This document shows positions 1,438 through 49,402 of a DNA stretch of 59,880 bases, one piece after another. The DNA comes from Minisyncoccia bacterium (GTDB lineage: Bacteria; Patescibacteriota; Minisyncoccia; Phycocordibacterales; Phycocordibacteraceae), in NCBI GenBank assembly GCA_038212075.1, contig JBBQUV010000002.1:73343-133222 (forward strand). The letters are read 5' to 3'. Position 1 is the first letter of the stretch. Every line of letters starts with the position of its first letter. Position numbers and translations under genes: made by a program. Under the pieces are notes generated by a model. That model worked only from the letters and a program-made list of their open reading frames with translations, had not been told where the DNA came from and did not search any database.

Positions 1438-1563
1438 GACTTTTTAAAATATGGCTTATTTACAATGTTTTGGAAAGACTTCTCATGTATTCTTCATAAA
1501 AGTGCTGTCCTTTATCCCCAGTGTACACACCTTTATCCACTTTTGTGTGGAAATGCACAGAAA

Positions 1564-1594: not shown

Positions 1595-1608
1595 TAACCA
1601 AAGTAGCT

Positions 1609-1773
1609 GTGCGGCTAAGGAGAACCTCGATTACGATTTCGGTCACGGATAACGCCTATGCCGCCGCTTAGGCATTTCCGCGACCCCGGCTCGCCGTTTT
1701 GGCTTACTAGCCAAAACATGCTCTGCCTTCCGATTCTCCACAGACGCCAGCAGATGGCGTCCTTTAGCCGCAC
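1609..1773 (-). ncRNA. unclassified structured element A (tRNA-Gly 3'-end mimic; candidate ncRNA or miniature mobile-element relic)
   Basis: About 13-bp closing helix (gtgcggctaagga / tcctttagccgcac). 1609..1624 is identical to the tRNA-Gly 3' end at 1796..1811. 1729..1739 tccgattctcc is an inverted exact copy of the tRNA-Gly T loop plus T stem. Internal hairpins lie at 1743..1761 and 1697..1718. It sits between tRNA-Gly and a terminator. Strand and RNA status are unproven. Confidence 0.45.
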
Positions 1774-1796
1774 AAAATCTCACGTTATTCGTTTTG

Positions 1797-1867
1797 TGCG
1801 GCTAAGGAGAATCGGACTCCTATCTCATCCTTGGCAAGGACGTGTTCTACCATTGAACCATAGCCGC
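1797..1867 (-). tRNA. tRNA-Gly (anticodon GCC), no encoded CCA
   Basis: Cloverleaf: GCGGCTA/TAGCCGC acceptor, D stem GTTC/GAAC, anticodon loop TTGCCAA, T arm AGGAG-TCCGATT-CTCCT, discriminator A. 71 nt. Confidence 0.9.
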
Positions 1868-1920
1868 TTCCTGAACATACTCGCACACCTTTCGCACCTG
1901 TTCAATGTCTTTCTCTCTAA

Positions 1921-1995
1921 TGGTGCCCCGGCCAGGACTCGAACCCGGAACAGCTGATCCGAAGTCAGCCGTGATATCCATTTCACCACCGGGGC
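1921..1995 (-). tRNA. tRNA-Arg (anticodon UCG), CCA encoded
   Basis: Cloverleaf: GCCCCGG/CCGGGGC acceptor, anticodon stem GCTGA/TCAGC with loop CTTCGGA, T arm CCGGG-TTCGAGT-CCTGG, A-CCA. 75 nt. Confidence 0.9.
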
Positions 1996-2055
1996 GTATC
2001 CAAATACTACGCGGTAGCTAGGAAAAAGACCATACGGGTATTACTATTTTAGGCA

Positions 2056-3519
2056 ATGCACTTCCCTATCCCCCCTGAAGTATCAAAAGTTGCGGAAGGA
2101 CTTCGCTCCAACGGCTTTGAAGCCTATCTTGTAGGCGGCTGTGTTCGCGATCTTTTGCTCAATCGAAAACCGAAAGATTGGGATGTCACCACAAATGCAA
2201 AACCTGAAGATATTCAAAGAGTCTTTCCTGATTCTTTCTACGAGAACGAGTTTGGCACTGTAGGGGTTAAAACAGACTCAGGAGACGAGACTACAGCAAT
2301 TGTTGAAGTAACCCCCTACCGTACTGAATCTACGTACTCTGATAAGCGTAGACCCGATGCTGTTGCGTTTGGAGATTCTCTTGAAGCCGACCTTGCCCGT
2401 AGAGACTTCACCATCAATGCTCTTGCCCTTGATGAATCTAAAGGACAAATCATTGACCCTTATAAAGGACAAAAGGACATAGAAGCGAAGGTTGTTCGAG
2501 CTGTCGGTGACCCATGTGTCCGTTTTGAAGAGGACGCCCTTCGTCTTATGCGCGCAATACGCCTTGTGGCAGAGCTTGAGTTTGCGCTTGATGCTGAAAC
2601 TGCGGCCGCAATACAGGAAAAAAGCTCAAACCTAAGGCATATTTCAAAGGAACGTATTCGCGATGAATTGGTACGCATTTTGAACTCTAGCCAGCCAATG
2701 ATGGCGCTTACGCTCGCCCAACAGCTTGGCGTCCTAGAATTTGTCGCTCATGACCTTGTGCGTGGTATCGGCATTGAACAAAATCAAGCCCATAGCTACG
2801 ACGTTTTTGGGCATTTAATGCGCAGTATGCAACACGCCGCGGATAAAGACTGGGACTTTACACTCCGCCTTTCTGCCCTATTCCATGATGTAGCTAAGCC
2901 AGAAACTCGTCGCTGGTCGGACGAAAAGAAAGAATGGACCTTCCATGGCCACGAAGTTGTGGGTTCACGTGTAACTCGTAAGGCGTTAGAAGAACTGAAG
3001 TTTTCACGTGAAATTATAGATAAAGTTGTGAAACTAGTTAGGTGGCACATGTTCTTCTCCGACCCAGACCAAATCACTCTTTCAGCGGTACGGCGCATGA
3101 TTACAAACGTTGGTGAGGAGAATATCTGGGATCTTTTGAATTTACGTATATGCGACCGCATTGGAACAGGCCGACCAAAGGAACAACCCTTCAGATTTAG
3201 GAAATACAAAGCCATGGTAGAGCAGGCACTTCGGGATCCTATTTCAGTGGGAATGCTTAAAACAGACGGGAATAGACTTATGGAGCGTTTTCACGTGCAA
3301 ACGGGCCCACGTATAGGATGGACACTCAATGCTCTACTTGAAGAGGTTTTAGAGGATTCTGAAAGGAATACCGAGGATTACTTAGACGAAAGGACAAAAG
3401 CGCTTTTAGCGCTCAATGATCCTGACTTAATGGCTCTTGGGGAATCAGGCAAGAAAAGAAGGGAAGAAGAGGAAGAGGCGGCAATCAAGGGCATAATGGA
3501 CAAACATCACGTTTGCTAG
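2056..3519 (+). CDS. cca: CCA-adding tRNA nucleotidyltransferase with HD domain
   Basis: 487 aa. N-terminal GGCVRDLLLNRKPKDWDVTT (pol-beta nucleotidyltransferase head), RRDFTINALA, then HD-domain FHDVAKP...HGHEVVG. Confidence 0.85.
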   Translation: MHFPIPPEVSKVAEGLRSNGFEAYLVGGCVRDLLLNRKPKDWDVTTNAKPEDIQRVFPDSFYENEFGTVGVKTDSGDETTAIVEVTPYRTESTYSDKRRPDAVAFGDSLEADLARRDFTINALALDESKGQIIDPYKGQKDIEAKVVRAVGDPCVRFEEDALRLMRAIRLVAELEFALDAETAAAIQEKSSNLRHISKERIRDELVRILNSSQPMMALTLAQQLGVLEFVAHDLVRGIGIEQNQAHSYDVFGHLMRSMQHAADKDWDFTLRLSALFHDVAKPETRRWSDEKKEWTFHGHEVVGSRVTRKALEELKFSREIIDKVVKLVRWHMFFSDPDQITLSAVRRMITNVGEENIWDLLNLRICDRIGTGRPKEQPFRFRKYKAMVEQALRDPISVGMLKTDGNRLMERFHVQTGPRIGWTLNALLEEVLEDSERNTEDYLDERTKALLALNDPDLMALGESGKKRREEEEEAAIKGIMDKHHVC

Positions 3520-3568
3520 TTTTCACGTGTAACGTCTCACGCGAAACATTTCGTAGGATAGATAACAA

Positions 3569-3668
3569 AAAACCGCCTGTAGACATTTTTTTGTAGAGAC
3601 TCGGGGAAGGAGCAGGGGGCAAAAGTAGTGAGTCTCCACGAGATGTAAGTCTGGTGGCGGTTTTTATT
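3569..3668. other. expanded terminator-like hairpin: aaaaaaccgcc ... ggcggttttt enclosing about 77 nt with an inner 7-bp stem
   Basis: Outer arms aaccgcc (3571..3577) and ggcggtt (3655..3661) flanked by A/T runs. Inner stem gagactc (3597..3603) / gagtctc (3631..3637). Lies in the 415-bp gap between convergent cca and xth. Confidence 0.35.
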
Positions 3669-3934
3669 TTTTTTATTCGCGCTGTGTATCGGCACCAAGC
3701 AGAATCCAATATTTTGGGTGCTATTTGGTACCGACAACCCGTTAGATGGCAAAACCACTTATATATGCGGGGATACGCCCCGAATCGTTGTTTTTGCCTT
3801 TTTACGTTTCTGCGCGCTGATAGAAAGAACTCGCAAGGTGCAGTAACGCCCAGTCGCCCTCTAGGACATATAATACTCTCAATAAGGTGCCAGTAAAGGA
3901 CACCACTGTGGATAATGTCCTTTATATATGTCTT

Positions 3935-4729
3935 TTAAGACAAGGTAATAGAAACAGGGCAGTGGTCAGACCCCATAACTCCCGGATGGATTTCAGCTTT
4001 CTTTATCTTGGGCATAAGAGATTTGCTTGCGAATATATAATCTATGCGCCATCCAACATTGCGTGCACGGGCATTGCTCCAATTACTCCACCACGTGTAT
4101 TGCTTTGGTTCTTGGTTGAAATGGCGGAAAGTGTCCACAAATCCTGCACTAATAATGTTGTCTATTCCTTCACGTTCTTCCTTGGTATACCCGTGCCCTC
4201 CTTCGTTTGCTTTTGGATTTTCAAGGTCTATAGGTTGATGGGCAACATTTAAATCACCACAGAAAATAACGGGCTTCTCTTCTTCAAGACGCTTCATATA
4301 AGCGAGGAAAGCAGGGTCCCACTGCTTATGCCGAAGCGAGAGGCGAGAGAGATCGTCTTTGGCGTTTGGGGTGTACACGCTTGTTACGTAAAAAGGTCCA
4401 ACATCCACTGTCGTGACCCTTCCTTCATCGCTCGGGTCTCCGTACTCATCGCCACTTAGCTTATATTTCTTCACAATGTCTGCTGGCATGCCAAAAAGGG
4501 CATTTTCCGGTGTACGTTTTGTAAAAACGGCGGTGCCGCTATAACCCTTCTTCTTCGCGGAACTCCAAAATTCTTCGTAGTCAGGTAAATCAAGAGGGGA
4601 CTGCTTTTGTTCCGCCTTTGTTTCTTGAAGGCAGAGCACGTCAGGTTTGAATTCTTTCAAATACGGTACAAAAACCCCTTTTCGATGTACCGCCCGTATA
4701 CCATTAACGTTCCAGGATGCAATTCTCAT
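3935..4729 (-). CDS. xth: exodeoxyribonuclease III (AP endonuclease)
   Basis: 264 aa. MRIASWNVNGIRA...LCLQETK...SDHCPV matches the ExoIII/EEP family. Confidence 0.9.
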   Translation of the reverse strand: MRIASWNVNGIRAVHRKGVFVPYLKEFKPDVLCLQETKAEQKQSPLDLPDYEEFWSSAKKKGYSGTAVFTKRTPENALFGMPADIVKKYKLSGDEYGDPSDEGRVTTVDVGPFYVTSVYTPNAKDDLSRLSLRHKQWDPAFLAYMKRLEEEKPVIFCGDLNVAHQPIDLENPKANEGGHGYTKEEREGIDNIISAGFVDTFRHFNQEPKQYTWWSNWSNARARNVGWRIDYIFASKSLMPKIKKAEIHPGVMGSDHCPVSITLS

Positions 4730-4746
4730 ATCTGCATTCTACCGCA

Positions 4747-5517
4747 CTAGGGTTTCGAGAGTTTCCAAAGCGCTTCAAAGAATTCACGATACCCATCTGC
4801 CATGGCTTTGTTTGTAATGGTGAAAGAAAGGATCGGGTCGCCGAACATATTGAAGGTAATGTTGTCGGTCCAAATGTCGGTATCAACAAGTCCGGTCGAG
4901 ACTCCGCCGGGAAGGATGCGGTATTCCCAGAGCTTGCGCCACCCCTGCATCTTTGCGAGCTCTTCTCTTTGTGGTTCCATGCCGATGTATCGCACATTAA
5001 GGCCTTTCTTAATACGTTCCTTCTCAAATTCTTCTGATTCTGTCCCAAAAGTAAACAGATATTTCTCGCTTGGCCCACAAATAGCATCTACCGTCGAGTT
5101 TTCAGCTACTTGTTCAAGTAGGTCGTATTGGTGAGCCATGAAAGCGTTTTCCCCCTGGAATACTTCAAAGTTCTGTTCATGCTGGCCGCTGTAGCGCACT
5201 TGGAGTTGCTTCGCTATCGCCTGCGCCGCTAGGCGTTTCTCCTCGACAATAGATAAGAGACGCATTGGAGGATTGGCACTGAACTTCTTCCGGCCGTTCT
5301 GAATAACATGCTTTGCGAGCCCTAATTTCTCTAGGCGCTCTAGGGCGTCATATACAAACTGACCATGGAGGCCTGTGGCATGGATAATTTTTGAGCTGCC
5401 GACGTCGTGGCGGGGGAGAAGGGCGAGATATACCAAGGATTCTTTTTCAGAAAGTCCTATATCTTTGAGCTTATCTAACAAGTCTTTGTCGGCTATTTCA
5501 TCAAAATTTACTGACAT
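4747..5517 (-). CDS. TrmB-family HTH transcriptional regulator
   Basis: 256 aa. N-terminal LSEKESLVYLALL...GSSKIIHATGLHGQFVYDALERLEKLGLAKHV winged-helix typical of TrmB, with a C-terminal TrmB-like effector region. Confidence 0.65.
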   Translation of the reverse strand: MSVNFDEIADKDLLDKLKDIGLSEKESLVYLALLPRHDVGSSKIIHATGLHGQFVYDALERLEKLGLAKHVIQNGRKKFSANPPMRLLSIVEEKRLAAQAIAKQLQVRYSGQHEQNFEVFQGENAFMAHQYDLLEQVAENSTVDAICGPSEKYLFTFGTESEEFEKERIKKGLNVRYIGMEPQREELAKMQGWRKLWEYRILPGGVSTGLVDTDIWTDNITFNMFGDPILSFTITNKAMADGYREFFEALWKLSKP

Positions 5518-5577
5518 ATATACAAAATACCCTATATTTATATAGCTGTTTTGTCAATATTTCATCATCATAGATAT

Positions 5578-5606
5578 TTGACATTAAGTAATTATTACGC
5601 TATACT
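5578..5606 (+). promoter_or_regulatory. sigma70-type promoter for ORF 5658..6161
   Basis: TTGACA (5578..5583), 17-nt spacer, TATACT (5601..5606). About 50-nt leader with GGGAGGG upstream of the ATG. A TTGACA on the opposite strand (5552..5557) may serve the divergent TrmB gene. Confidence 0.5.
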
Positions 5607-5657
5607 TATCACAGAAATCAAGTTCACTTCAACTAAAGGCCTGGGAGGGCCAAGCTA

Positions 5658-6161
5658 ATGAAGCTCACAGGATTCCTCGACTTTCAGTCTCCTCTCCTTA
5701 GCGATGAGGAATGGATGCTTCGCGCCAAGAAGGTGGCGGGCAATGAAGGTGGCCAGCGTATGGTCCCTGCAATGTTCCAGACCGTGAAAGAAGTAATAGA
5801 AGAAGCTCGTAAGGGAAGGGTTATGGAGATTCCGGTGTGGGAAGAGGGGAAGCCCTACGACTTCGACACAGCGGAAAAGATGCAGAAACTCAATCTTCTC
5901 GCCATGCACGCCTACGTGACAATCACGCTCACCAAGAAAGCTTGTTGGGAAGGCGGATATCAGTTGCGCGGGTGGGTAAGAAACCCTGGTTTTTCCGGAT
6001 CGCGCGATTGGGATATGCATGTCGATGGGTTTGGACACGGCGCCCTCTTCGAATTTCGCGGAGGTGGGAAGATTGATGGCCTCAAGAGTCTTGTCGACCA
6101 GTATCTCGTGAATAGCTGGGGTCGAAGATTTGAGGACGATCTCTACGTCGTCTGGGTATGA
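5658..6161 (+). CDS. hypothetical protein (167 aa)
   Basis: Has its own promoter, SD GGGAGGG and a downstream terminator at 6272..6304. Preferred over the antisense ORF 5655..6233, whose composition is H/C/R/L-rich. Confidence 0.55.
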   Translation: MKLTGFLDFQSPLLSDEEWMLRAKKVAGNEGGQRMVPAMFQTVKEVIEEARKGRVMEIPVWEEGKPYDFDTAEKMQKLNLLAMHAYVTITLTKKACWEGGYQLRGWVRNPGFSGSRDWDMHVDGFGHGALFEFRGGGKIDGLKSLVDQYLVNSWGRRFEDDLYVVWV

Positions 6162-6271
6162 ACGGAGTGGGGTGATATCCCGCTTGGCAACAGAAGGTCC
6201 GAGTACTCGCAAGAGGCAGTAGGACCAAAACAATCACCGTAAGGCAACGCTACGGTATATAAAAGGTCGGC

Positions 6272-6304
6272 AACCACGTCTCACAAACGTGGTTTTCTTT
6301 TTTG
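6272..6304 (+). terminator. intrinsic terminator
   Basis: aaccacgt-ctcacaa-acgtggtt followed by ttcttttttg. Confidence 0.55.
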
Positions 6305-6320
6305 GGCTACAAATACTCAC

Positions 6321-6380
6321 AACCCCTTTTCGATGTACTGCTCGTATACCATTAACGTTCCAGGATGAGATGCGCATATC
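6321..6380 (-). pseudogene. duplicated 5' fragment of xth (start codon plus 19 codons)
   Basis: 54/60 nt identical to 4673..4732. Encodes MRISSWNVNGIRAVHRKGV versus xth MRIASWNVNGIRAVHRKGV, after which homology ends. Confidence 0.65.
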
Positions 6381-6450
6381 GATATACTACCAGTGAGATA
6401 CAGAAAAGGCCTTGGCGTGTGTGCGCCAAGGCCTTTCTTCCGTCCTGCGG

Positions 6451-7341
6451 TCATGCAGACACGGATTGGTCGCGAACGAGTTTGTCGACGCGTCCACGCA
6501 CCGCTTCTTCGGGGGCTCGAACCAGATCGTAGGTCAGGCCGAAAAGGGACAATGTCCAAATCAGCCATTTCCCAGGATCAGGGTCGTACCACCGTCGTCC
6601 AAGTCGATAGTCATGCGGAGCAAGGTGGTGTTCGTGATGGAACGCTTCGCCACCAGTGAGAATGGCCAGAGGTACACTGGTTCTTGCGGAACCAACCGGA
6701 GCGTATCGTCTTGCGCCAAACGTATGGGCTACCGAGTTGATAGACCACGTGAGTTGGTACTGAACGAAAAGACGCAGAAATCCGGCAACCAGAAGCCCGC
6801 CGAGCCAGTCGCCCCATAACCCACAAATAATTGTGGGGAAGACAAAACTTACGGTCACTGCAAGTACCGCGTAGTTTCGCCGTTGCCACGCAAGTGCGGG
6901 GTTTTGCACGAGAGATCGCGCCTCTTTTGTCGTAAGTTCCTTGCGATCGTGCCACATCCACCGGATGTGTGCCCACCAAAAGCCGTGGAGCGCACTGTAC
7001 GGATCGTTTGGACCATCGGAACTGCCATGGTGGCGCCGATGAAGCGCCGCCCACCAGTCCGTGAATCCTTGGAACGCCGCAGGTAGGACTGCCGCAAAAA
7101 CGTACTGTAGCCACATAACCATTTTGAAGGCTTCGTGTGAGTACAGCCGGTGTGCTACGACGGTGATTGCTACCGTGATTACGGAAAATTCCACGAAGGC
7201 TACGCATACGGTCGCCCACGAGAAACGAATCGCAATCATGTACCAGACGGCGACAATGGCGCCAACAAGGACGAAGCTGAACCATCCTACGACGGCCCAG
7301 CGAATCGGCAGGGAAGCTGCCGGGCTTACTGCAGAGGTCAT
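6451..7341 (-). CDS. membrane fatty-acid (acyl-CoA/acyl-lipid delta-9 type) desaturase
   Basis: 296 aa with the three histidine boxes HRLYSH, HRRHH and HHEHH, plus N-terminal TM helices. GC-rich, with long shadow ORFs in other frames. Confidence 0.85.
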   Translation of the reverse strand: MTSAVSPAASLPIRWAVVGWFSFVLVGAIVAVWYMIAIRFSWATVCVAFVEFSVITVAITVVAHRLYSHEAFKMVMWLQYVFAAVLPAAFQGFTDWWAALHRRHHGSSDGPNDPYSALHGFWWAHIRWMWHDRKELTTKEARSLVQNPALAWQRRNYAVLAVTVSFVFPTIICGLWGDWLGGLLVAGFLRLFVQYQLTWSINSVAHTFGARRYAPVGSARTSVPLAILTGGEAFHHEHHLAPHDYRLGRRWYDPDPGKWLIWTLSLFGLTYDLVRAPEEAVRGRVDKLVRDQSVSA

Positions 7342-7642
7342 GGTTTTCTCCCTTCGACCTATGTTTCTGAAGCGAAAATGTGCTCCGAGGCTATGGTAGC
7401 ACCGCTTTGGTAATGAAGAAGCTCCGACGGAAGTCAGAAACTTCCTCGGAGCTTAACGGTGACGTCTGGTTGAATCGCGATGCGACCGATAACATTTCCC
7501 ACAGAGGCAATGTTCCTTGTCGGCAACACTACCTCGACCATTCCACCTTGGGACCACTATGGCCCGACCGCATTCGCAGTAATTGGCCATCGGGAACCCT
7601 TTCTTTGTGCCATTTTGATCCTACCAAACAGATAGTAAAAGT

Positions 7643-8539
7643 CTATCTATCGCGACCGTGGAATTTTTTATGGATTTCGCGAAGATGAGAGTCGGTAACA
7701 TGTGTGTAAATTTGCGTGGTGTTAATGGATGCATGGCCAAGGAGTTGCTGTACGGAGCGAATGTCGGCACCGTTTGAAAGCAAATCCGTTGCAAATGAGT
7801 GACGGAGAACGTGGGGGGTAACTTTTTTCGTGATACCGGCCTTGGCGGCGTACACTTTTATAATTCGTTCAATGGAACGTGGGGTGATGCGCTCACCCCG
7901 CTCGCGTCCCTTCGCAATATTTACAAAAAGTCCTTCGCCCATGTCTTTACGCGTTTTCAAATAGCCAGAGACCGCCGATTTTGCGGTGGGGGACAGAAAC
8001 ACCACACGTACTTTATCGCCCTTACCACGCACCGAGAGTTCGTCGCGGGTAAGATCCATATCGGAATCAAGTGCACAGAGTTCTGAAACACGCAGGCCGG
8101 TGGAAAAAAGAAGTTCAAACATTGCACGGTCACGCATGGATTTTTCATCGTCGCCGTCGGCCGCTTTCATTAAGCGGTTCAGTTCCGTCGGAGTGATGAG
8201 GTCAAGTGAGCGCTCAGGAAGCTTCGCCAGTTCAATGCGTTCGGGAGAAATGCATTCAATACCGCGTTTACGGAGAAATTTTAGGTACGCGCGAAGCGCG
8301 ATAAGGTAGTAGTTTTGCGTACGGCGCTTCATTGAGCCGTTCATGGTGCCCGGTTGGCGATTCAACCACAGTCGGAATTCGCGGATATTTTCTTCAGTGA
8401 TGTCTGCAACCGATGCAATCTTCATTTGTGTAAAGTAGCGGGTGAGGTATCGATCGTAGTTCTCAATCGTCTTCACCGAGCGCCCGCGCTCAATTTCTAT
8501 GTATTCCAGAAACTGTCGCTTCATTGTTTCCGCGTTCAT
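7643..8539 (-). CDS. tyrosine site-specific recombinase, XerC/XerD-like
   Basis: 298 aa. N-terminal SAM-like domain (FLEYIEIERGRSVKTIENYDRYL) and C-terminal HVLRHSFATDLLSNGADIRSVQQLLGHASINTTQIYTHV (R..HxxR..Y catalytic set). Confidence 0.85.
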   Translation of the reverse strand: MNAETMKRQFLEYIEIERGRSVKTIENYDRYLTRYFTQMKIASVADITEENIREFRLWLNRQPGTMNGSMKRRTQNYYLIALRAYLKFLRKRGIECISPERIELAKLPERSLDLITPTELNRLMKAADGDDEKSMRDRAMFELLFSTGLRVSELCALDSDMDLTRDELSVRGKGDKVRVVFLSPTAKSAVSGYLKTRKDMGEGLFVNIAKGRERGERITPRSIERIIKVYAAKAGITKKVTPHVLRHSFATDLLSNGADIRSVQQLLGHASINTTQIYTHVTDSHLREIHKKFHGRDR

Positions 8540-8608
8540 GTGCCAATTTTACCACCATAACGTCGCACATTATTCACTTCGTCAGCAGGTAATCGGACCG
8601 CACCACTC

Positions 8609-8637
8609 TTGCAAGAATAATCAAGGTGTGGTAGAGT
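8609..8637 (+). promoter_or_regulatory. candidate promoter for rpsO, giving a near-leaderless transcript
   Basis: TTGCAA (8609..8614), 17 nt, TAGAGT (8632..8637) preceded by TGG (extended -10). The ATG at 8647 is 9 nt after the -10 and has no SD. Confidence 0.4.
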
Positions 8638-8646
8638 ACGTGGCAC

Positions 8647-8913
8647 ATGCTTACTACGAAGAAAAAGGCGACGGTCATTAAAGCTACTGCACGTCACGAG
8701 AAAGATACGGGTTCTCCCGAAGTTCAGGTTGCCGTTTTGTCACGTCGCATCGACGATCTTACGAAGCACCTCAAGAAAAATACGAAGGATGTTCACTCCC
8801 GTCGTGGACTTCTTCAGATGGTTGCTGATCGTCGCTCCCATCTTCGCTACCTTGAGAACAACGACAAGCGCCGCTATAACGCGCTTGTGAAGAAACTCGG
8901 TTTGAAGAAGTAA
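8647..8913 (+). CDS. rpsO: 30S ribosomal protein S15
   Basis: 88 aa. DTGSPEVQVAVLSRRIDDLTKHLKKNTKDVHSRRGLLQMV is the S15 signature. Confidence 0.95.
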   Translation: MLTTKKKATVIKATARHEKDTGSPEVQVAVLSRRIDDLTKHLKKNTKDVHSRRGLLQMVADRRSHLRYLENNDKRRYNALVKKLGLKK

Positions 8914-8915
8914 GA

Positions 8916-8946
8916 CATGGCCGGCTTCGCCGGCCATGCGCTTTTC
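8916..8946 (+). terminator. intrinsic terminator after rpsO
   Basis: catggccgg-cttcg-ccggccatg followed by cgctttt. Confidence 0.6.
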
Positions 8947-9009
8947 AGGGTGGTAGTATGTATGGGTAGCCTCCGCTACGTTTTTAATAAGTATTTCTAA
9001 TTTATTTTT

Positions 9010-9525
9010 ATGGCAGTAATCAAACATTCAGCGCAACGCGTTGGAGTATTTATAGACACACAGAATCTCTATCACAGCGCAAAACACCTTTATAAGACTC
9101 GCGTAAACTTCGCCAACGTACTTGAAGAAGCCGTAGGGAATCGCATTCTCGTGCGTGCAATCGCCTACGTTATTTCTACGGAAAGTGGGGAAGAGAAGGG
9201 CTTTTTCGACGCCCTTACCAAAATCGGCATCGAAACCAAAGTGAAAGATCTTCAAATCTTCGCCGATGGTGCAAAAAAAGCTGACTGGGACGTTGGGCTC
9301 GCAATTGATGCGGTGAAAATGTCACCAAAGCTCGATACCATCATCATTGCCTCAGGCGACGGTGACTATGTTCCACTCATTGAATATCTTGATATGAACG
9401 AAGGATGCCAAGTGGAAGTTATTTCCTTTGGTAAGTCTTCTTCGGCAAAACTCAAAGAAGCGGCGCACGCCTTCACTGATATGTGTGAAGACCCGCGCAA
9501 GTTTCTTATCGGCTATCGCGGGTAA
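9010..9525 (+). CDS. NYN-domain (LabA/DUF88-like) protein
   Basis: 171 aa. VGVFIDTQNLYHSAK...IIIASGDGDYVPLIEYL matches the LabA-like PIN/NYN pattern. Confidence 0.7.
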   Translation: MAVIKHSAQRVGVFIDTQNLYHSAKHLYKTRVNFANVLEEAVGNRILVRAIAYVISTESGEEKGFFDALTKIGIETKVKDLQIFADGAKKADWDVGLAIDAVKMSPKLDTIIIASGDGDYVPLIEYLDMNEGCQVEVISFGKSSSAKLKEAAHAFTDMCEDPRKFLIGYRG

Positions 9526-11189: not shown

Positions 11190-11205
11190 TTTTAAAACCT
11201 CGTAC

Positions 11206-11229
11206 AAAACCGCCCGAAAGGGCGGTTTT
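11206..11229. terminator. terminator hairpin aaaaccgccc-gaaa-gggcggtttt (copy 1 of 3 identical)
   Basis: Perfect 6-bp GC stem with GAAA loop, flanked by A4/T4. Identical at 17053..17076 and 18409..18432. Confidence 0.7.
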
Positions 11230-11397
11230 GTGTTACTGTCTGCATGGTTGTTCATTTGCGTTGCTTCATGCGACGCCCATCTGTGCCCGGTACCGGAAGG
11301 TTAAGAGGAGGTTACCTACGCTTCAGAGGTGTATGTGCCAAATCAGGAACCCTGGTAAACGGCGACCGTAACTATAACGGTCCTATAATGAACAACC

Positions 11398-17036: not shown

Positions 17037-17113
17037 ACAAAAAAGAGTTCACAAAACCGCCCGAAAGGGCGGTTTTGTGTTTTCCACGTCTGTATATTTA
17101 GATTCAAAATAAG

Positions 17114-18388: not shown

Positions 18389-18491
18389 TTTTTTATCTCA
18401 GAAAAAGCAAAACCGCCCGAAAGGGCGGTTTTGCTTTTATTTGTTTTTGTGGTATTTTACGGACAGGAGCACACAAAGGAGGGCTCCAGAA

Positions 18492-35192: not shown

Positions 35193-36155
35193 ATGGAAGG
35201 TCCTAAAAGGCAGGAAGGTAGCCGCATAGAAATTCCGGCAGGGACACGGATAACTATAACGAAGAAAAGTCTTCAAGAAGGGAAGGACTCAGTTGTTGCT
35301 GTAGGAGAAAGTACGACTGGCATTCTGCTTTCGCCTGTTGCGGTCGGCAGTTTTGCGGCGCTTGATAACGGTTTACGTACAAGCACTATACGAAACGTAC
35401 GACATGAAGGCGGTAAAACATTTATAACCACCCATACATCGCTTTACGAGATTTCGCCAGAATTTAATGGCCTTACTTATCACTCAGAGACTGGTGACAT
35501 AACCTTGCCACGAGATGCACACATTGCTCCTTTGCGAGAAGGCAATGCGCCATTGTTTGAGGCGGCACCTTCAAGTTCGGTGGAAGCCGTTCGAGTGAAG
35601 ATAGATCGTGAAGCCCTGCAAGGAGTTTTGCTGGAAGTTGGAGGAGGTGTGGTGCATGCCATTGATGAACGATACTTTGTACTCGCAAAAGTAGGGAACG
35701 CACATATTCCTTTTTACCGTTCTTCAAATGGCACGAGTGGAAAGAAACGTGGCGCGTGGTATCCATTTTTTGGCCATACGGGAAGCTGGGTAATAAAAGG
35801 AGATATACAACCTAATGGGAAAATGCCTTACCACCCAGAAATTACAAGAGTGAATGATCTTCTCAATGAACACCTTACGTTGCCAGATCCGCGCTATGTC
35901 GACACTGAATACAAATTGCGCACTAAAGACGGAAGGGTGCTCTATGACATAAATAAAGAAATTCCGATGCGAGACATGCGCAACACTCCAGAATGGAAGG
36001 AACGAGGTATGCTCGATTACAAAGTAAAGGCATACGTTGAAAGAATGACCGGATATGCCCCGCATCGGCTGGATGACTACCATCCTTATGACGGTGATTC
36101 CGCACGCGAAAAAGCCGCAAGAGAATGGATTTCAGCCGTCGTTACAAGGATTTAA
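35193..36155 (+). CDS. hypothetical protein (320 aa)
   Basis: Long ORF ending at the bidirectional terminator 36158..36186. No family recognised. Confidence 0.55.
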   Translation: MEGPKRQEGSRIEIPAGTRITITKKSLQEGKDSVVAVGESTTGILLSPVAVGSFAALDNGLRTSTIRNVRHEGGKTFITTHTSLYEISPEFNGLTYHSETGDITLPRDAHIAPLREGNAPLFEAAPSSSVEAVRVKIDREALQGVLLEVGGGVVHAIDERYFVLAKVGNAHIPFYRSSNGTSGKKRGAWYPFFGHTGSWVIKGDIQPNGKMPYHPEITRVNDLLNEHLTLPDPRYVDTEYKLRTKDGRVLYDINKEIPMRDMRNTPEWKERGMLDYKVKAYVERMTGYAPHRLDDYHPYDGDSAREKAAREWISAVVTRI

Positions 36156-36157
36156 TG

Positions 36158-36186
36158 CAAAAAACCGCCCTTTCGGGCGGTTTTTT
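36158..36186. terminator. bidirectional terminator aaaaaaccgccc-tttc-gggcggttttttt
   Basis: Same ccgccc/gggcgg stem as the 11206 family, with a TTTC loop. Lies between convergent ORF 35193..36155 and rplT. Confidence 0.65.
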
Positions 36187-36188
36187 GT

Positions 36189-36536
36189 TTATACGACCTG
36201 CTTTGCTACTCGGGTGAAAATTTCTGGGTGGTCTTTTGCGAGGGTAGAGAGTACTTTGCGATCAAGCTGGATACCACCTTTCTTCAATTTGCTAATGAAG
36301 GTTGAATACGACTTGTGGCCGTTGTCACGCACGGCGGCATTAAGGCGCACAATCCAAAGCTGGCGGAAGTCCGTTTTTTTATCTTTGCGGTGATTGAACG
36401 CGTACTTTCCCGCGTGTACGAGTGCTTCTTTTGCAAAACGTTCCTTTTTGGAACGGATACCGCGGTATCCTTTCGCGCGCTTTAATATGTTGCGGCGGCG
36501 TTTTGCGGCGATGATTCCTCCTTTGACTCGTGACAT
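36189..36536 (-). CDS. rplT: 50S ribosomal protein L20
   Basis: 115 aa. MSRVKGGIIAAKRRRNILKRAKGYRG...DRKVLSTLA. Confidence 0.96.
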   Translation of the reverse strand: MSRVKGGIIAAKRRRNILKRAKGYRGIRSKKERFAKEALVHAGKYAFNHRKDKKTDFRQLWIVRLNAAVRDNGHKSYSTFISKLKKGGIQLDRKVLSTLAKDHPEIFTRVAKQVV

Positions 36537-40837: not shown

Positions 40838-40896
40838 GAAGGTTCTCTGCCCGCTAAGGTTTATTCCGTATTGGTTGTGGAAGAAGGTGGAATAAT

Positions 40897-40924
40897 AAAA
40901 AAACCGCCCAAGGGCGGTTTTTTT
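40897..40924 (+). terminator. terminator aaaaaaaccgccc-aa-gggcggttttttt
   Basis: Same ccgccc/gggcgg stem family. Confidence 0.65.
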
Positions 40925-41032
40925 ATTTGTGAACCCTATACCATTTTGATACGTGCGTCCTACAGGCGCTAGGTGTTATGTGGTATAGTTTTTGCAGTTC
41001 ACCACACTTATAAAAAACACCACCCCTCTTTC

Positions 41033-42349: not shown

Positions 42350-42363
42350 CATATCTTCCATCA

Positions 42364-42411
42364 CAGAAAAAAGAAAAACCGCATAACGCGGTTTTTCTTT
42401 TTTCTGTGGAA
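42364..42411. repeat. 48-bp perfect direct repeat, copy 1 (40-nt palindromic terminator hairpin plus ctgtggaa)
   Basis: cagaaaaaagaaaaaccgcataacgcggtttttcttttttctgtggaa is identical at 43818..43865. Confidence 0.9.
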
Positions 42412-42420
42412 GTGGGGGAG
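42405..42420 (-). repeat. tmRNA 3'-end-like fragment, copy 1
   Basis: tgtggaagtgggggag compared with the ssrA 3' end ggtggaagtggggag (44803..44817). Identical to 43633..43648. Confidence 0.7.
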
Positions 42421-42464
42421 TGGAGAAAAGAGAAAGGCGCCCCCACAAGGAGGAGCGCCTGTTC

Positions 42465-42821
42465 TTACTGTATGCCCGTAGTTGTTCGTAGTGCTTCTGC
42501 GCCCCACAATTTATAAAAACTGTCAGGGAGCGGAAGAAGCGGCGCAATCTTATTGTCCATGAAGAATTTGTGTTCCTTCTGGGCAAGCTCCGACGTTTCG
42601 AAGAACGCGATGAGCGGGTGTTGCATGCCACAGCAGAAGATAAGTCCTGCCGGCTGTGTGTAGAGGGTGTCGTCGTCGGGGTACTTGACGAAGACGGCGA
42701 CCTTCCCTGCACAGAACAGTTTTCCGCAGGTAGGGCAGTGCTGTCTCATGTTTTCTGGATGCTTGTACGCACCAACAAGCATTTTGCCTTTCGTTACAGC
42801 TTCCTTGATCCGGTCATTCAT
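42465..42821 (-). CDS. hypothetical protein (118 aa) with a CxxC pair
   Basis: ORF with a hairpin plus T-run downstream on the minus strand (42433..42460). Contains HCPTCGKLFC. Confidence 0.45.
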   Translation of the reverse strand: MNDRIKEAVTKGKMLVGAYKHPENMRQHCPTCGKLFCAGKVAVFVKYPDDDTLYTQPAGLIFCCGMQHPLIAFFETSELAQKEHKFFMDNKIAPLLPLPDSFYKLWGAEALRTTTGIQ

Positions 42822-42935
42822 TGAAAGAACTCCTTTGAGAACTTACGAAGCTTAGATGTCGCTAAGTAGAAAACCAAATTTTTAATCAAATTATACGGAA
42901 TTGTATCTTTTTGTTATAAATGATAGTTTGTTGAG

Positions 42936-43580
42936 ATGAAGACGATACAAGACTCTGTTCATCAGCTCATATACAACGATGAAGAGGCACTCTATGCGCT
43001 TGCAAAGGGCTATATGAACCTCTCCGCGTACGCTGACATTATCCATACGCAGGTGGAGACCGAAACGATGAAGGACGTAAAGACACCGAGCATCGTGGTC
43101 GCACTCTCGCGTATCCAAAAGACAATCGGTGCTGTCCACCCGCTGGTCGAGAATGTCGAACTCAAGAACATCACCACCAAATCACCACTCTCCGAAATTG
43201 TGTTCGAGAAAACAGAAGTACTCCTTGACGAACTCCCGGCATTCTATGAAAAAGTACGTGCAGGGAGTGATGATTTTTTGAGCACAATACTCAGCACAAC
43301 TGAAATCACAATGCTCTGCTCCGATCGCATTCGAAAAGAAGTGCTTTTCCATTTCAAACAGAAACCAAAAGTAATAACGGGGAACTTGGCATCTATCGGG
43401 CTCTCGATAGATGAAAAGTACTACCCGATGTCGAATATCACGTTCTCGCTACTTCGCAAGATTGCAGAGAAGCACATTCCTCTGGCAGAAACAGTGACCA
43501 CACATGCCGAGATAATTTTCGTCTTTGACAAGCAATACCTTGCAGAAATTGTTGGACTCTTCCAGGACAACGTAGGCTAG
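42936..43580 (+). CDS. hypothetical protein (214 aa), possibly ACT-like repeats
   Basis: ORF followed by a hairpin at 43604..43627. The ACT-like suggestion is an impression from the sequence pattern only. Confidence 0.45.
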   Translation: MKTIQDSVHQLIYNDEEALYALAKGYMNLSAYADIIHTQVETETMKDVKTPSIVVALSRIQKTIGAVHPLVENVELKNITTKSPLSEIVFEKTEVLLDELPAFYEKVRAGSDDFLSTILSTTEITMLCSDRIRKEVLFHFKQKPKVITGNLASIGLSIDEKYYPMSNITFSLLRKIAEKHIPLAETVTTHAEIIFVFDKQYLAEIVGLFQDNVG

Positions 43581-43632
43581 TTTGGTAGTGCGTCGCACAA
43601 GACAAAAAGCCGCTTTCGCGGGTTTTTATCTT

Positions 43633-43820
43633 TGTGGAAGTGGGGGAGAACCGCGATTACGCATTTGGTCACAGATAATTTTCTGCTGAAAATTTCTGCG
43701 AAGCCTTGCGCTTGATTTTCTAACTCACTAGTTCGTAACAAAATCTACGCCCGCCTCGCGCCGTCGCGCTCCGGCTTTCAATTCTCCACGCACGTTCTCC
43801 CAGAACGTGCTCCACTCCAG
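43633..43820 (-). ncRNA. unclassified structured element B, homologous in architecture to element A but matched to the tmRNA 3' end
   Basis: 43633..43650 is a tmRNA 3'-end copy. 43646..43678 is 28/33 identical to 1620..1652. 43777..43787 ttcaattctcc is an exact inverted copy of the tmRNA T loop plus T stem. Hairpin at 43790..43810, then tccactccag, an inverted acceptor-like end. RNA status is unproven. Confidence 0.4.
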
Positions 43821-43865
43821 AAAAAAGAAAAACCGCATAACGCGGTTTTTCTTTTTTCTGTGGAA
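43818..43865. repeat. 48-bp perfect direct repeat, copy 2
   Basis: Identical to 42364..42411. Followed by ttggttattcc instead of gtgggggag. Confidence 0.9.
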
Positions 43866-44051
43866 TTGGTTATTCCAGGTTAGAACTTCGCTGATACTAA
43901 ACAGCTCCTCATATTTCCTACGAGTGGTGGATGAGTGGGTATCATCTTGAGTACACAAAAGCCAATATGTTCCTACAGTATGTTGAAAATGAGCGCGAGA
44001 GATTAGAACCTACTACCAAACAGGATATAATCGAAGTCATGAAGGGATACT

Positions 44052-44714
44052 ATGAATAAGAACATCGCCATCACTATCAGTGCATTCGATCGCTCGCCCG
44101 ACGGTGGCAAAGGGTTGGCGCGCGACACGCGTGTCCGCTGGGCGCTTGAAGAAGTTGGCCAGCCCTATAATATTCTTCCCGTCTCATTCAAAGAGCTGAA
44201 AGAGCCTGCATATCTAGCGCTCCAGCCTTTTGGCTCAATCCCTATGTATAAAGAGGGCGATCTTGTCTTGTTTGAGTCGGGATCAATCGTGCTCCATATC
44301 GCCGAGAACTATTCGGGACTCTTGCCGAAGGAGATCAATGCCCGGGCCCGCGCGATCACGTGGATGTTTGCGGCAGTTAGCACGGTGGAACCGCCGATTC
44401 TTGACCTCTCCATTGTTAGGGTCGTGGAAAACAATGAATCATGGAGCAAAGAGCGCCTGCCCTTGGTCATGGACCGTATCCGCTCCCGCCTGGAAAAGCT
44501 TTCCGCCCGCCTTGGCGATGCCGACTGGCTTGATGGCGAATTCAGTGCGGGCGATCTCATGATGGTGTCGGTGCTGCTCCGAGCAAAGTCGTCGGGTGTT
44601 CTAGATGAATACTCGAATGTTGCTGCCTATGTCGCGCGAGGCGAGGCACGCCCGGCCTATAAGCGCGCGTTCGCCGCTCAATTGGCATTTAACACACGCG
44701 ACGCTGGAGTGTAA
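44052..44714 (+). CDS. glutathione S-transferase family protein
   Basis: 220 aa. PFGSIPMYKEGDLVLFESGSIVLHIAE (thioredoxin-like N domain with the ESxxI motif) and a helical C domain. GC-rich relative to its flanks. Confidence 0.8.
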   Translation: MNKNIAITISAFDRSPDGGKGLARDTRVRWALEEVGQPYNILPVSFKELKEPAYLALQPFGSIPMYKEGDLVLFESGSIVLHIAENYSGLLPKEINARARAITWMFAAVSTVEPPILDLSIVRVVENNESWSKERLPLVMDRIRSRLEKLSARLGDADWLDGEFSAGDLMMVSVLLRAKSSGVLDEYSNVAAYVARGEARPAYKRAFAAQLAFNTRDAGV

Positions 44715-44802
44715 TGGCATAAGATAAGCGTAGTTTTAAAGTAGAAAACCGCCTCACGGGCGGTTTTCTAATGTTCTATATGTTTCCATATAGTTCTATA
44801 TC

Positions 44803-45201
44803 GGTGGAAGTGGGGAGAATTGAACTCCCGTCCGAGAATGGTACTTGAAACGCTTCTACGACGCATAGTCAGTGTTGGTGATTCAGTATGGACATAAGAA
44901 CACTGACGAAAGCGTCCATACCTAATCCCTTATTTAAATTCGGGGGCGGGAAGTCCCTGAATCGATCTTATAGGTTATTCCGCCCGCAGACTCCGCTATA
45001 AGAACCGGAGACTGAAGACGTCGCTTGTGCGAAAGCGCGAGGCTTTTACGCAAGAGCGAACGCGAGGTTTCCCATGTAGGGAGACTTCACGCTTGCAGTG
45101 TTTTTGTTTGCAAGTTTGGTGCCCACCAGTTTTAAGTGGTGTGTGGGCGTTCACTGCGTCGCGCATTTTCAAGGAACAAACCGTCGAAACCGATCACTCC
45201 C
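44803..45201 (-). ncRNA. ssrA: tmRNA (SsrA)
   Basis: 5' GGGAGTGATCGGTTTCGACGG. 3' T arm GGGAG-TTCAATT-CTCCC, acceptor CACTTCC-A-CC with G3:U70. Internal tag frame GCA AAC ... GCT CTT GCG TAA (45111..45046) encodes ANKNTASVKSPYMGNLAFALA. Directly downstream of smpB. Confidence 0.85.
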
Positions 45202-45242: not shown

Positions 45243-45692
45243 CTAAATCTTGCGTTTCAGTACTCGTGCCGCTTCTCGTTTCGCATCTTTTTGTTTCAAA
45301 TCTTCGCGTTTGTCAGCTTTTCCTTTGCCGCGAACGATGGCCACCCGTACCTTCACCAGATTTCCTTTATTATACACCTCAATTGGGACTGTTGTCAAGC
45401 CCTTCTTTGCCTCGGCTTCGGCAAGCTCCCGTATCTCGTTTTTGCTAAGCAATAGGCGGCGAGTGCGCTCTGGCTCGTACCCTTCAGGGGTGTTTGCAGA
45501 TTGATAGGGAGGGATGGTAACACCCACAAGGTATGCCTCGCCTGCACGCACAATTACCCTAGAACCGTCCAGTTGGCCGTGTTTTGCCTTTAGTGCTTTC
45601 ACTTCATGTCCAAATAGCTCAATACCCGCCTCAAATTCCTTGAGTCGTTCGAATTTTAGCCCCGCCTTTTTGTATTCGATGAGCGTGCTCAT
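45243..45692 (-). CDS. smpB: SsrA-binding protein SmpB
   Basis: KFERLKEFEAGIELFGHEVKALK...GEAYLVGVTIPPY...RTRRLLLSKNEI. Start at the internal ATG 45692. Confidence 0.93.
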   Translation of the reverse strand: MSTLIEYKKAGLKFERLKEFEAGIELFGHEVKALKAKHGQLDGSRVIVRAGEAYLVGVTIPPYQSANTPEGYEPERTRRLLLSKNEIRELAEAEAKKGLTTVPIEVYNKGNLVKVRVAIVRGKGKADKREDLKQKDAKREAARVLKRKI

Positions 45693-48495: not shown

Positions 48496-48568
48496 GCGTC
48501 CATAGCTCAATGGTTAGAGCACTCGGCTTATATCCGAACGGTTGCAGGTTCGAGTCCTGCTGGACGCA
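48496..48568 (+). tRNA. tRNA-Ile with unmodifiable-type anticodon UAU (ileX-like body), no encoded CCA
   Basis: Cloverleaf: GCGTCCA/TGGACGC, D arm GCTC-AATGGTTA-GAGC, anticodon stem CTCGG/CCGAA with loop CTTATAT (anticodon TAT), T arm GCAGG-TTCGAGT-CCTGC, discriminator A. 73 nt. Confidence 0.85.
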
Positions 48569-49402
48569 CTATTTAGGAAACACGTCAGTGAGAAGGTTGG
48601 AGTCGTAGAAATCCCCAGCGAGCCCACCGAAACTGTATTTGTTAGTACCAACATCAATTTCTGCGCCTCCTATTTGCGGGTTGGCGTTTGGATTTGAATG
48701 AGTAAAGCCGATGTTGAAAAGCGTGGAAAGTACTGCTGGTTTATTGGCGATAGGAAAGCCGGATTTTGCCCACGCTGTCTCTATTTCTTTCAAATACAAT
48801 CCTGCATACACATAACTCCAATAATGGTCGTGTTCTGAGGTCATACGTGCAAAGCGCTCTTGTTTTATATCGGTACTTGAAGCGGTAGAGAAATCAAGCG
48901 CGTGCTCATACGCCGTGCCCGGATAGTAAGGTGATGCGGGATTTTTCAAATTGTTTTCAATTTGAATGGCGGTATCTTCTTTAATGCCCATCACTCCCCA
49001 TGAAAATTGCGTTTGTGAGCCGAGGATTTTAAGGGGAAGGAAAAATTGTTTGTATACCTCGCGCTCAGTAAAGAAAAGACGAAGCTGTTCCGCTACCAAA
49101 TTTTCAACAATGGCGCGCGCTGGAACTCCTGAATCTTTTGATGCACGATTTATGGCGCTGATGTCTTTTCGTATAGACGCATCAAGCACTCCCCATTCCT
49201 CAGTGGTGCTCCATGGAAGAAGCGGCGTGCTGTCGGAAGCAGGTACCGCGGCACTCGAGCCCTGAATAAACGCTTCACGCTGGGTATCAATAATTCCGGT
49301 AGTGTTGGTGATGCCGTACTTCACCGCAAAGTACATGGACACGAACAAAAAGCCGATGACGGCAAATATATACACCAGAATCTGGAACCCCTTTTTTATC
49401 AT
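48569..49402 (-). CDS. membrane-anchored hypothetical protein (277 aa)
   Basis: N-terminal TM ILVYIFAVIGFLFVSMYFAV followed by a large extracytoplasmic domain. No family recognised. Confidence 0.55.
   Translation of the reverse strand: MIKKGFQILVYIFAVIGFLFVSMYFAVKYGITNTTGIIDTQREAFIQGSSAAVPASDSTPLLPWSTTEEWGVLDASIRKDISAINRASKDSGVPARAIVENLVAEQLRLFFTEREVYKQFFLPLKILGSQTQFSWGVMGIKEDTAIQIENNLKNPASPYYPGTAYEHALDFSTASSTDIKQERFARMTSEHDHYWSYVYAGLYLKEIETAWAKSGFPIANKPAVLSTLFNIGFTHSNPNANPQIGGAEIDVGTNKYSFGGLAGDFYDSNLLTDVFPK

Follow-up and report, generated by a model that had tools for sequence, protein, structure and literature searches.

In a 59,880-nt stretch of a Minisyncoccia bacterium genome (contig JBBQUV010000002.1, positions 73,343 to 133,222 of the forward strand; hereafter the window) we identified two sister copies of a short structured element, one behind a glycine tRNA gene and one near ssrA, the gene for transfer-messenger RNA (tmRNA). 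Element A (1606-1778, or 1606-1795 including its spacer) lies immediately 3′ of tRNA-Gly(GCC) (1796-1867), and element B (43631-43822) lies about 1 kb 3′ of ssrA (44803-45201). Genes and elements are all on the minus strand, each element being on the strand of its gene. Both genes were called by ARAGORN and Rfam, with ssrA, whose 5′ strand is GGGAGUG, matching RF00023 at 105.9 bits. We lean towards regarding A and B as integrative or homing elements of ~170-190 nt that lack an open reading frame (ORF) and that, in Parcubacteria, are dedicated to the 3′ halves of tRNA and tmRNA genes. Among known classes the family fits best with the tRNA/tmRNA-targeted integrative elements, as a form with a structured, probably RNA, core.

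A and B were read directly and aligned to each other, with 73% column identity. An initial annotation of this DNA had assigned the two to one family, pointing to a 33-nt arm identical at 28/33 positions (43646-43678 against 1620-1652), and had judged their likeness to be beyond chance; both statements hold. A covariance model of the core finds only A (126.8 bits) and B (80.3 bits) in the window, everything else scoring 20 bits or less, and a degenerate pattern made from both arms occurs in the window only at these two places, with 0 expected from 100 shuffles.

Across 10 genomes or metagenome bins of Parcubacteria/Paceibacteria the model matches 21 copies, each ~170-190 nt long and without an ORF. 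Eight kinds of target are represented: tRNA-Gly-GCC (6 copies), Gly-TCC (5), tmRNA (3), Pro (2), Ala-GGC (2, one of them in tandem), Arg (1), Ala-CGC (1) and Ser (1). All 21 copies lie downstream of a tRNA or tmRNA gene and on its strand. In 17 of the 21 the helix P2 starts 30-77 nt past the gene end; two copies stand in tandem behind the 3′-half copy of a preceding element, and two (B and one at locus L030) are parted from their target by an inserted gene. In tRNA sense, every copy has an antisense module, usually split by a GC hairpin, then a four-way-junction core (P2-P5), a direct copy of the gene's 3′ half and usually a terminator. The gene-derived modules co-vary with the neighbouring gene while the non-host core is conserved, as had been proposed from A and B alone. 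Orthologous Gly-GCC copies persist over divergent genomes, and the core G+C content is 0.56-0.64.

Pattern scans of GTDB genomes and JGI metagenomes yielded the true homologues L005, L014, L015 and L016 (two copies). A 19-base pattern gave mostly chance or coding matches in GTDB (Halorubrum and others), L005 alone being genuine, and L012 and L013 from the metagenome scan were rejected as chance matches. Further syntenic loci were obtained through YraN and FtsH homologues (Minisyncoccota, Paceibacterota, Parcubacteria and Kaiserbacteria), whose sources place the host among the Patescibacteria (CPR), and searched with the core covariance model, R1. The model found no copy at the sampled loci of L029 and L031 or at the ssrA locus of L028. 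Rfam 15 at the gathering threshold returned tRNAs and tmRNA only, placing the element in no family, and at E<=10 gave only terminator-type noise for it. BLASTN of element A against phage and plasmid collections produced no match, pattern scans of IMG/VR viral contigs gave 0 matches, and we found no description of the element in the searchable literature.

Fold, covariation and strand

Folding of the tRNA-sense strand, which is the minus strand of the window, gives the same architecture for A and B (z = -8.6 and -4.6). An outer acceptor-like helix (P1), a GC hairpin (H1) and a T-stem-like helix (P2) lead into a junction with hairpins P3/P3a, P4 and P5, behind which comes the terminator. P2, formed by GGAGAAUC paired with GGUUCUCC, closes the junction of three hairpins. 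In B, the acceptor part of the antisense module, CUGGAGUGGA (43811-43820), is the 5′ strand of P1 in the fold and in the complementarity table. It is followed by H1 (43790-43810, from the fold) and by the T part of the antisense module, GGAGAAUUGAA (43777-43787), whose first 8 nt are the 5′ strand of P2. Next come P3/P3a (43753-43775, from covariation), a 43-nt hairpin present only in B (43708-43750, from the fold), P4 (43667-43705), which has a bulged A and is the minus-strand reading of the 33-nt arm, and P5, GCGUAAUCGC (43653-43662, from the covariation alignments). The 3′ strand of P2 (43645-43652) continues into the direct copy of the ssrA 3′ half, UUCUCCCCCACUUCCACA (43633-43650; 43633-43652 including the P2 strand). 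The B-only hairpin bears a tandem-G.A hairpin motif, ACGAACUAGUGAG, that in other copies sits right after the tRNA. The parts of A are its spacer (1776-1795), antisense module (1764-1775), H1 (1742-1762), antisense-T (1729-1739), P3 (1688-1727), P4 (1641-1685), P5 (1627-1636), P2 3′ strand (1619-1626) and direct copy (1608-1624). The minus-strand hairpin and T-run reported behind both copies are present at 1564-1595 for A and, as a terminator-like hairpin with a U-run, at 43602-43628 for B.

Covariation supports this fold. In an alignment of 19 sequences that was itself fitted to the covariance model, 94.7% of cells are paired, compared with 27-47% when partners are slid by 1-3 columns, and 23 of the 33 core pairs show compensatory changes; the observed values were reached by 0 of 500 shuffles. 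An independent MAFFT alignment of seven copies has 98% of cells paired and compensatory changes in 11 pairs. The middle P3 pair covaries, being C-G, G-C or A-U. It is very improbable that the copies are inert scars, whether attachment-site (att) arms of deleted larger islands or a common terminator or repetitive extragenic palindromic (REP)-like repeat, that lack any fold of their own. Simple displaced 3′ fragments and islets do occur at the same loci (795-822, 42357-42425, an islet with glutathione S-transferase (GST) domains beside ssrA, and the tRNA-Ile of L024), as scars would lead one to expect, but scars do not account for a size and architecture that are constant over 21 copies, for the compensatory changes, or for wobble pairs and GA motifs that are strand-specific. 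Nor is the core a terminator, Rfam giving noise only. The objection, foreseen in the initial annotation, that the arm might belong to a terminator or REP-like repeat is answered by the core, which is a four-way junction and occurs just twice in 59.9 kb, each time in association with a tRNA or tmRNA gene; the actual terminators belong to repeat families of their own.

The signal is strand-specific. On the tRNA-sense strand there are 47 G-U/U-G cells against 6 A-C/C-A cells; of 19 copies, 17 retain a G.U pair in P4 and 12 a U.G pair in P2. With the model, element A reaches 126.8 bits when read on the minus strand but 19.7 bits on the plus strand. A small tandem-G.A hairpin, exemplified by CGAAC-GAA-GUGAG and CGAGC-GACG-GCGAG, has two constant positions, one immediately behind the tRNA and the other at the P4 tip; the motif occurs 36 times on the sense strand and twice on the opposite strand, against 6.1 ± 2.6 in shuffles, and its fourth pair covaries. 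Because of the wobble bias, the strand-wise model score and the GA-motif bias, we infer that the element probably acts as a single strand of tRNA-sense polarity, most likely as RNA.

The helices differ in their conservation. P1 is present in A, B, L014 and L005, where it pairs through the discriminator, and is missing or disrupted in L016a, L017 Gly-GCC, L023 Arg and L023 Pro. P2 is conserved, and its closure is kept even where the neighbouring acceptor copy has decayed. The initial annotation had raised the idea of a minihelix serving as a substrate for RNase P, the CCA-adding enzyme or alanyl-tRNA synthetase (AlaRS). Since P1 is not conserved this idea is weakened, and a minihelix usable by these enzymes does not, on the modelled folds, appear to be a conserved feature of the family.

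Antisense modules and direct copies of the target gene

The start of B, tgtggaagtgggggagaa (43633-43650), reproduces the ssrA 3′ end (44803 onward) as its reverse complement, with a single g added, as first described. The ssrA 3′ half copied in B comprises the T-loop, the T-stem 3′ strand and the acceptor 3′ strand. Further along, ttcaattctcc (43777-43787) is an exact inverted copy of the tmRNA T-loop and T-stem 3′ strand, and A carries the tRNA-Gly version tccgattctcc at this place. In A and B alike it is followed by 'ac', a GC hairpin of unrelated sequence and an inverted acceptor-like strand, again in agreement with the initial annotation. H1 interrupts the antisense module at the point where the complement of tRNA position 65 would adjoin that of position 64, and its sequence differs between copies while its pairing is constant. 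The acceptor strand of B had been said to keep a G:U position. The hexamer GGAGUG on which this was based is indeed present in the tmRNA 5′ strand, but there is no G:U pair and a bulged U stands in its place. The strand is the perfect complement GGAAGUG less one A (a 1-nt deletion), and the L024 tmRNA copy has the full complement.

We compared the antisense modules of 17 copies with the 3′ half and trailer of the upstream gene and with the downstream direct copy. In 17/17 the upstream gene and trailer are the better match (11-30 exact nt, against 0-20 nt downstream). The upstream match spans the whole T-loop, which varies by tRNA (TCCGATT, TTCGATT, TTCAATT or TTCGAAT), and also the non-tRNA trailer, which is different for each copy (AAAA, ATTT, ACATAAGT, AGAAAAGAAAAAAC and others). 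P1 was accordingly rejected as the chief pairing of the antisense module, which is always matched better by the upstream gene with its trailer. Gene end and antisense together form a perfect palindrome of 13-17 bp. The strand once described as acceptor-like is thus inverted as stated, but it makes a palindrome with the upstream 3′ half and trailer and is not primarily a mimic of the acceptor stem. Since the complementarity enters the trailer and not the CCA, the antisense would have been copied from DNA or a precursor and not from a mature tRNA. A retroviral-type primer-binding site derived from mature tRNA was rejected on the same ground.

The stems of the gene palindrome have no wobble pairs, whereas the core has many G.U pairs; perfect stems beside a G.U-rich core suggest that the palindrome arises or is preserved as DNA, through templating or hairpin correction. 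This bears on the possibility, which we rate as quite unlikely, that the element is a folded single-stranded DNA (ssDNA) recombination site like integron attC or the CTX-phage attP hairpin, used by a recombinase or HUH enzyme in trans and with no role as RNA. The antisense and the 3′-half copy would then pair on one strand and rebuild a duplex target, with the core and the GA hairpins being recognised. Perfect Watson-Crick stems over 13-17 bp at the gene 3′ end are what DNA templating or hairpin correction would leave, and folding with DNA parameters returns a structure identical to the RNA fold (z = -8.2). The strand bias fits a bottom-strand-type substrate, the ssrA locus resembles a cassette array, and the terminator ahead of the core in tmRNA copies also counts in favour of this reading. 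However, scans of Pfam, PHROGs and NCBIfam show no linked IntI-like, Xer-exploiting or HUH gene, and RNA more commonly shows a conserved G.U pair and tandem sheared G.A pairs. A fixed orientation shared with a strongly transcribed gene, at a position before that gene's terminator, would suit an RNA equally well.

The downstream direct repeat is 8-27 nt long and runs from about T-loop position 59. In L016b and in the L024 tmRNA copy it is of another allele (in the latter, CCCGCC vs CTCCCC), and in L017 Gly-GCC, L023 Arg and L023 Pro it is reduced to the P2 strand alone. A clear terminator lies behind the element in 7 of the 10 copies checked by eye, and at empty sites (L018, L023 and L028) the terminator is directly behind the gene. 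To judge from these sequences, the downstream copy behaves like a displaced resident 3′ end, as at integration sites. The parts called host-derived in the initial annotation do match the neighbouring gene, but they are two different things, a displaced direct copy and an inverted copy of the upstream gene. The arrangement had also been called hard to explain by simple att-site duplication, yet the direct copy is explained in just that way, as a displaced 3′ half together with the gene's terminator.

A further reading is that of an intervening sequence in the T-loop, or a split tRNA, in which the mature tRNA would take the distal 3′ half after removal of ~190 nt. The minimum free energy fold of a tRNA-Gly and A co-transcript (-130.7 kcal/mol) pairs the tRNA 5′ part with the distal copy and sequesters the proximal 3′ half against the antisense module, much as such an arrangement would demand. 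We nevertheless hold it to be extremely improbable: the proximal gene is intact and contiguous, the distal copy has no acceptor strand in the three reduced copies and misfits the gene in L016b and the L024 tmRNA copy, and Rfam gives no group I intron signal. A group I or other tRNA intron was likewise rejected, the proximal gene being complete and the distal copy unusable in several copies.

Spread of the family and the ssrA locus

Orthologous tRNA sites are filled in some genomes and empty in others, and elements also occur in tandem and nested arrays. In the tandem arrays at L020 Gly-TCC and L016, the antisense of each unit matches the 3′-half copy just upstream of it. The cores fall into two subtypes. 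Subtype 1, with a short P3a and UUUUCAGCAGAAAA at the P4 tip, comprises B (tmRNA), L017 (Gly-GCC) and the second L020 Gly-TCC copy, and subtype 2, the long form, comprises A, L015, L005, L020 Gly-GCC and the first L020 Gly-TCC copy. The subtypes do not track target identity. Within L020, the loss of P5 is common to two copies at different tRNAs, and one L030 copy has a Gly-GCC-type antisense yet is placed behind Gly-TCC. Because near-identical cores stand behind unrelated tRNAs, spread is required to have occurred long after the target tRNAs diverged. At L020 9153-9345, an element at tRNA-Arg has the same 5′ module (loop motif, antisense, GC hairpin and a 13-bp P2) joined to an unrelated interior, suggesting that 5′ module and core can be uncoupled.

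It is also conceivable, though we think it unlikely, that the element is a host-serving non-coding RNA carried on tRNA operons, expressed from strong tRNA promoters, released by RNase Z or RNase P in the manner of plant tRNA-snoRNA dicistrons, and having a protein-binding or catalytic core. The P1/H1/P2 stack would then serve processing, CCA addition or stability, and the spread over tRNAs would be ancient and incidental. Strong conservation of the core in structure and sequence, including the P4 G.U pair (17/19) and the GA motifs, is what a working RNA would show, as are the maintenance of P2 closure beside a decayed acceptor copy and the persistence of orthologous Gly-GCC copies across divergent genomes, and in topology P1-H1-P2 corresponds to the acceptor stem, the D plus anticodon arms and the T-stem. 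However, presence is patchy from tRNA to tRNA, the related genomes L029, L031 and L028 have no copy at the sampled loci, P1 is not conserved, and tandem and foreign-allele copies exist. In tmRNA copies a terminator stands ahead of the core. The antisense, moreover, complements gene and trailer and not the CCA end, as expected of a module derived from DNA or a precursor and not of a designed mimic.

The ssrA locus records several events. Going 3′ from ssrA on the minus strand, we find the GST islet, an old ssrA end, a terminator hairpin, B, the displaced 3′ half, a terminator, two ORFs and a further ssrA 3′-end copy at 42357-42425. The GST islet (43871-44802), named for the GST Pfam domains in its ORF at 44052-44714, is an unrelated later insertion between ssrA and B. 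A 7.5-kb island at the ssrA gene of L026 has an end homologous to that of the islet (43858-43948, aligned to L026 1497-1612). A degenerate remnant of the ssrA 3′ end, ACCAAUUCCACAG (43858-43870, minus strand, identified by sequence and alignment), is the 3′ half that adjoined B before the islet arrived. The terminator-like hairpin at 43820-43857 (minus strand) belongs to repeat family D5, has a second copy (93% identical) at 42366-42404, and is the apical part of the palindrome formed by the old ssrA end and the antisense module; L014 and L024 have the same layout. In these two genomes the element is directly behind the tmRNA gene, with the terminator hairpin within the palindrome. As they show the ancestral layout, B would first have inserted directly behind ssrA, with the GST islet landing between the two later. 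The minus-strand copy at 42357-42425 shares the extra C and the terminator and carries part of the start of an antisense module, but it has no core; it marks the far end of the ssrA insertion array.

Several further features were observed at this locus and its relatives. The two ORFs within 42426-43632 (214 aa, 42936-43580, plus strand; 118 aa, 42465-42821, minus strand) have no match in Pfam, PHROG or NCBIfam and sit between ssrA 3′-end copies that share the extra C, like cargo of another integrated unit. A separate family of islands integrates into the last ~11 nt of ssrA. It comprises the GST islet and the 7.5-kb L026 island (1520-9057), which have the conserved end …TGTGGAAGTGG|…AGGTTAGAAC…ATTTCCTACAAGTAGTGGACGAGTGG; the L026 island carries Phage_rep_O, helix-turn-helix (HTH) proteins and a 620-aa ORF without a family match. 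Beside its far end, at L026 1290-1370, lies a degenerate core fragment, …TTTCGGCACGGATAAC…, that is below model detection. A consensus-perfect promoter (TTGACA, 18-nt spacer, TATAAT) is located at 45369-45398 on the minus strand, in the 3′ part of the smpB ORF and ~170 nt upstream of ssrA.

A model of insertion and its setting

The upstream antisense match, the displaced downstream copies, the terminators and the tandem arrays point to an incoming unit that recombines in the 3′ half of its target. In this model the travelling unit would begin with O, a replacement for the 3′ half that starts near T-loop position 59 and includes a short trailer; O would complete the gene after insertion. O would be followed by a short loop, often with a small tandem-G.A hairpin, then by O once more, perfectly inverted and in most cases interrupted by a GC hairpin, and finally by the conserved four-way-junction core (P3, P4 and P5). 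Entry by recombination within O would push the resident 3′ half and the gene's own terminator downstream, where the resident T-stem strand could pair with the antisense module and close the core as P2. The recombination route may be a recombinase acting in trans or a homology-driven knock-in after DNA uptake, the tRNA being one homology arm and the 3′-half copy the other. Because the whole element then lies between the gene and its old terminator, it would be expected to be co-transcribed with the tRNA and could be freed by ordinary 3′ processing. As to what the core does, we give a substantial, though minority, chance to the proposal that this is a new class of homing element in which a structured RNA (or single DNA strand) bears an antisense guide to the tRNA 3′ half and directs or licenses recombination into tRNA and tmRNA genes, a nucleic-acid-guided counterpart to the recognition of att sites by integrases, or, equivalently, a new Parcubacteria ribonucleoprotein RNA that exploits tRNA transcription and processing.

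Several observations count against an integrative element with an RNA core. All three tmRNA-linked copies (3/3) have a strong terminator hairpin between gene and core, and a promoter scan found none near B. As the terminator precedes the core, transcription of these copies would need read-through or an unseen promoter. The structure folds equally as ssDNA. Searches for recombinases and reverse transcriptases with Pfam, PHROGs and NCBIfam, covering the ORFs around B, the L026 island and the window, found only an Xer-like gene, and the ORFs next to B gave no recombinase match in these collections. The Xer-like gene (7643-8539), the sole recombinase found in the window, lies in conserved synteny and occurs as well in genomes whose sampled loci have no copy. 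Among the loci examined we saw neither an excised or circular form nor an empty and filled pair within a single species. Gene conversion among copies could mimic the mismatch between subtype and target that forms part of the evidence for spread. Finally, a P2 that persists beside a decayed acceptor copy is no less compatible with a function in place than with a purely selfish element.

The element shares traits with several known systems. Islands that insert into tRNA and tmRNA genes restore the gene and leave behind a displaced fragment of it (PMC4383910), and direct-repeat arrays at ssrA are documented in Dehalococcoides (PMC2764846). Islander-type islands and the Dehalococcoides arrays resemble the element in their tRNA/tmRNA 3′ target, regenerated gene, displaced fragment as a direct repeat and tandem accretion (PMC4383910; PMC2764846). 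The element differs in having only ~170-190 nt, no ORF and so no internal tyrosine or serine integrase, a perfect inverted copy of the att segment, and a strand-specific core supported by covariation. Non-autonomous integrative elements (CIMEs) and miniature inverted-repeat transposable elements (MITEs) are likewise short, ORF-less and multicopy, show presence/absence polymorphism and presumably depend on functions in trans. MITEs carry family-specific terminal inverted repeats and a short target-site duplication, whereas here the ends are target-derived, the inverted segments vary by target, the duplication is 8-27 nt and the interior is a conserved multi-helix structure and not filler. Integron attC and CTX-phage attP(+) are alike in inverted segments that rebuild a duplex target, in structure taking precedence over sequence and in the use of one strand; the element differs in its sequence-conserved interior, in a target that is the tRNA 3′ half and not attI or dif, and in that we found no link to IntI or Xer.

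The predicted acceptor/T-stem-like coaxial stack would resemble those of MALAT1 mascRNA, plant-virus tRNA-like structures and bacterial YrlA, which serve in processing or tagging. Plant tRNA-snoRNA dicistrons, papers on which are among the references of PMC12045711, also place a non-coding RNA behind a tRNA and allow its possible release by tRNA-processing enzymes. In contrast to tRNA-like structures, the modelled element has as its 3′ strand a literal copy of the neighbouring gene, a four-way junction in place of the T-loop and an acceptor helix that is not conserved. Retroviral and long terminal repeat (LTR) element primer-binding sites are similar in having ~18 nt antisense to the tRNA T-loop, T-stem and acceptor 3′ strand; here the complementarity runs into the trailer and not the CCA, and family scans link no reverse transcriptase. 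A TIGR-Tas array was considered and dropped, since TIGR arrays are processed into 36-nt guide RNAs and have an unrelated layout.

Other features of the window were noted. A gene of the CCA-adding enzyme/poly(A) polymerase family (2056-3519) adjoins the tRNA-Arg/Gly cluster, with the Xer-like tyrosine recombinase 5.8 kb away. The synteny block of NYN, rpsO, xer, exo/endo/phosphatase, cca, the tRNAs and yraN is conserved with or without the element. At 795-822 (minus strand), ~52 nt downstream of tRNA-Pro (874-947), lies a displaced tRNA-Pro 3′ half, UCCGAUUCUCCGCACCCCGAC, with an allele like that of the L017 tRNA-Pro; as there is no structured core between the two, this is a different small replacement event. 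A tRNA-Ile with anticodon UAU (48496-48569; L024 12047-12120) is found beside ftsH in all relatives, and L024 has a displaced 34-nt 3′ portion of a tRNA-Ile about 60 nt downstream. A tRNA-Ile with this anticodon is unusual for bacteria. A 71-nt direct repeat (86% identical; 4673-4743 and 6321-6391) surrounds a TrmB-like gene region, and near-identical bidirectional terminator hairpins, AAAACCGCCCGAAAGGGCGGTTTT, occur at 11198-11235, 17045-17082, 18401-18438, 36153-36190, 40890-40927 and elsewhere in the window.

Integrases classically insert at tRNA and tmRNA genes. In this family such sites are occupied by a tiny element that contains no protein gene and has a covariation-supported fold and a built-in antisense of its target. 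For annotators, the covariance model offers a means of recognising the element, and it explains many 'tRNA fragments' and odd intergenic repeats beside tRNA genes in these genomes. If the element is instead a host RNA, it would be a new abundant structured RNA of the poorly understood candidate phyla radiation, expressed through tRNA operons. If the fold or the antisense takes part in insertion, the family would represent nucleic-acid-guided targeting of tRNA genes by an element free of protein genes.

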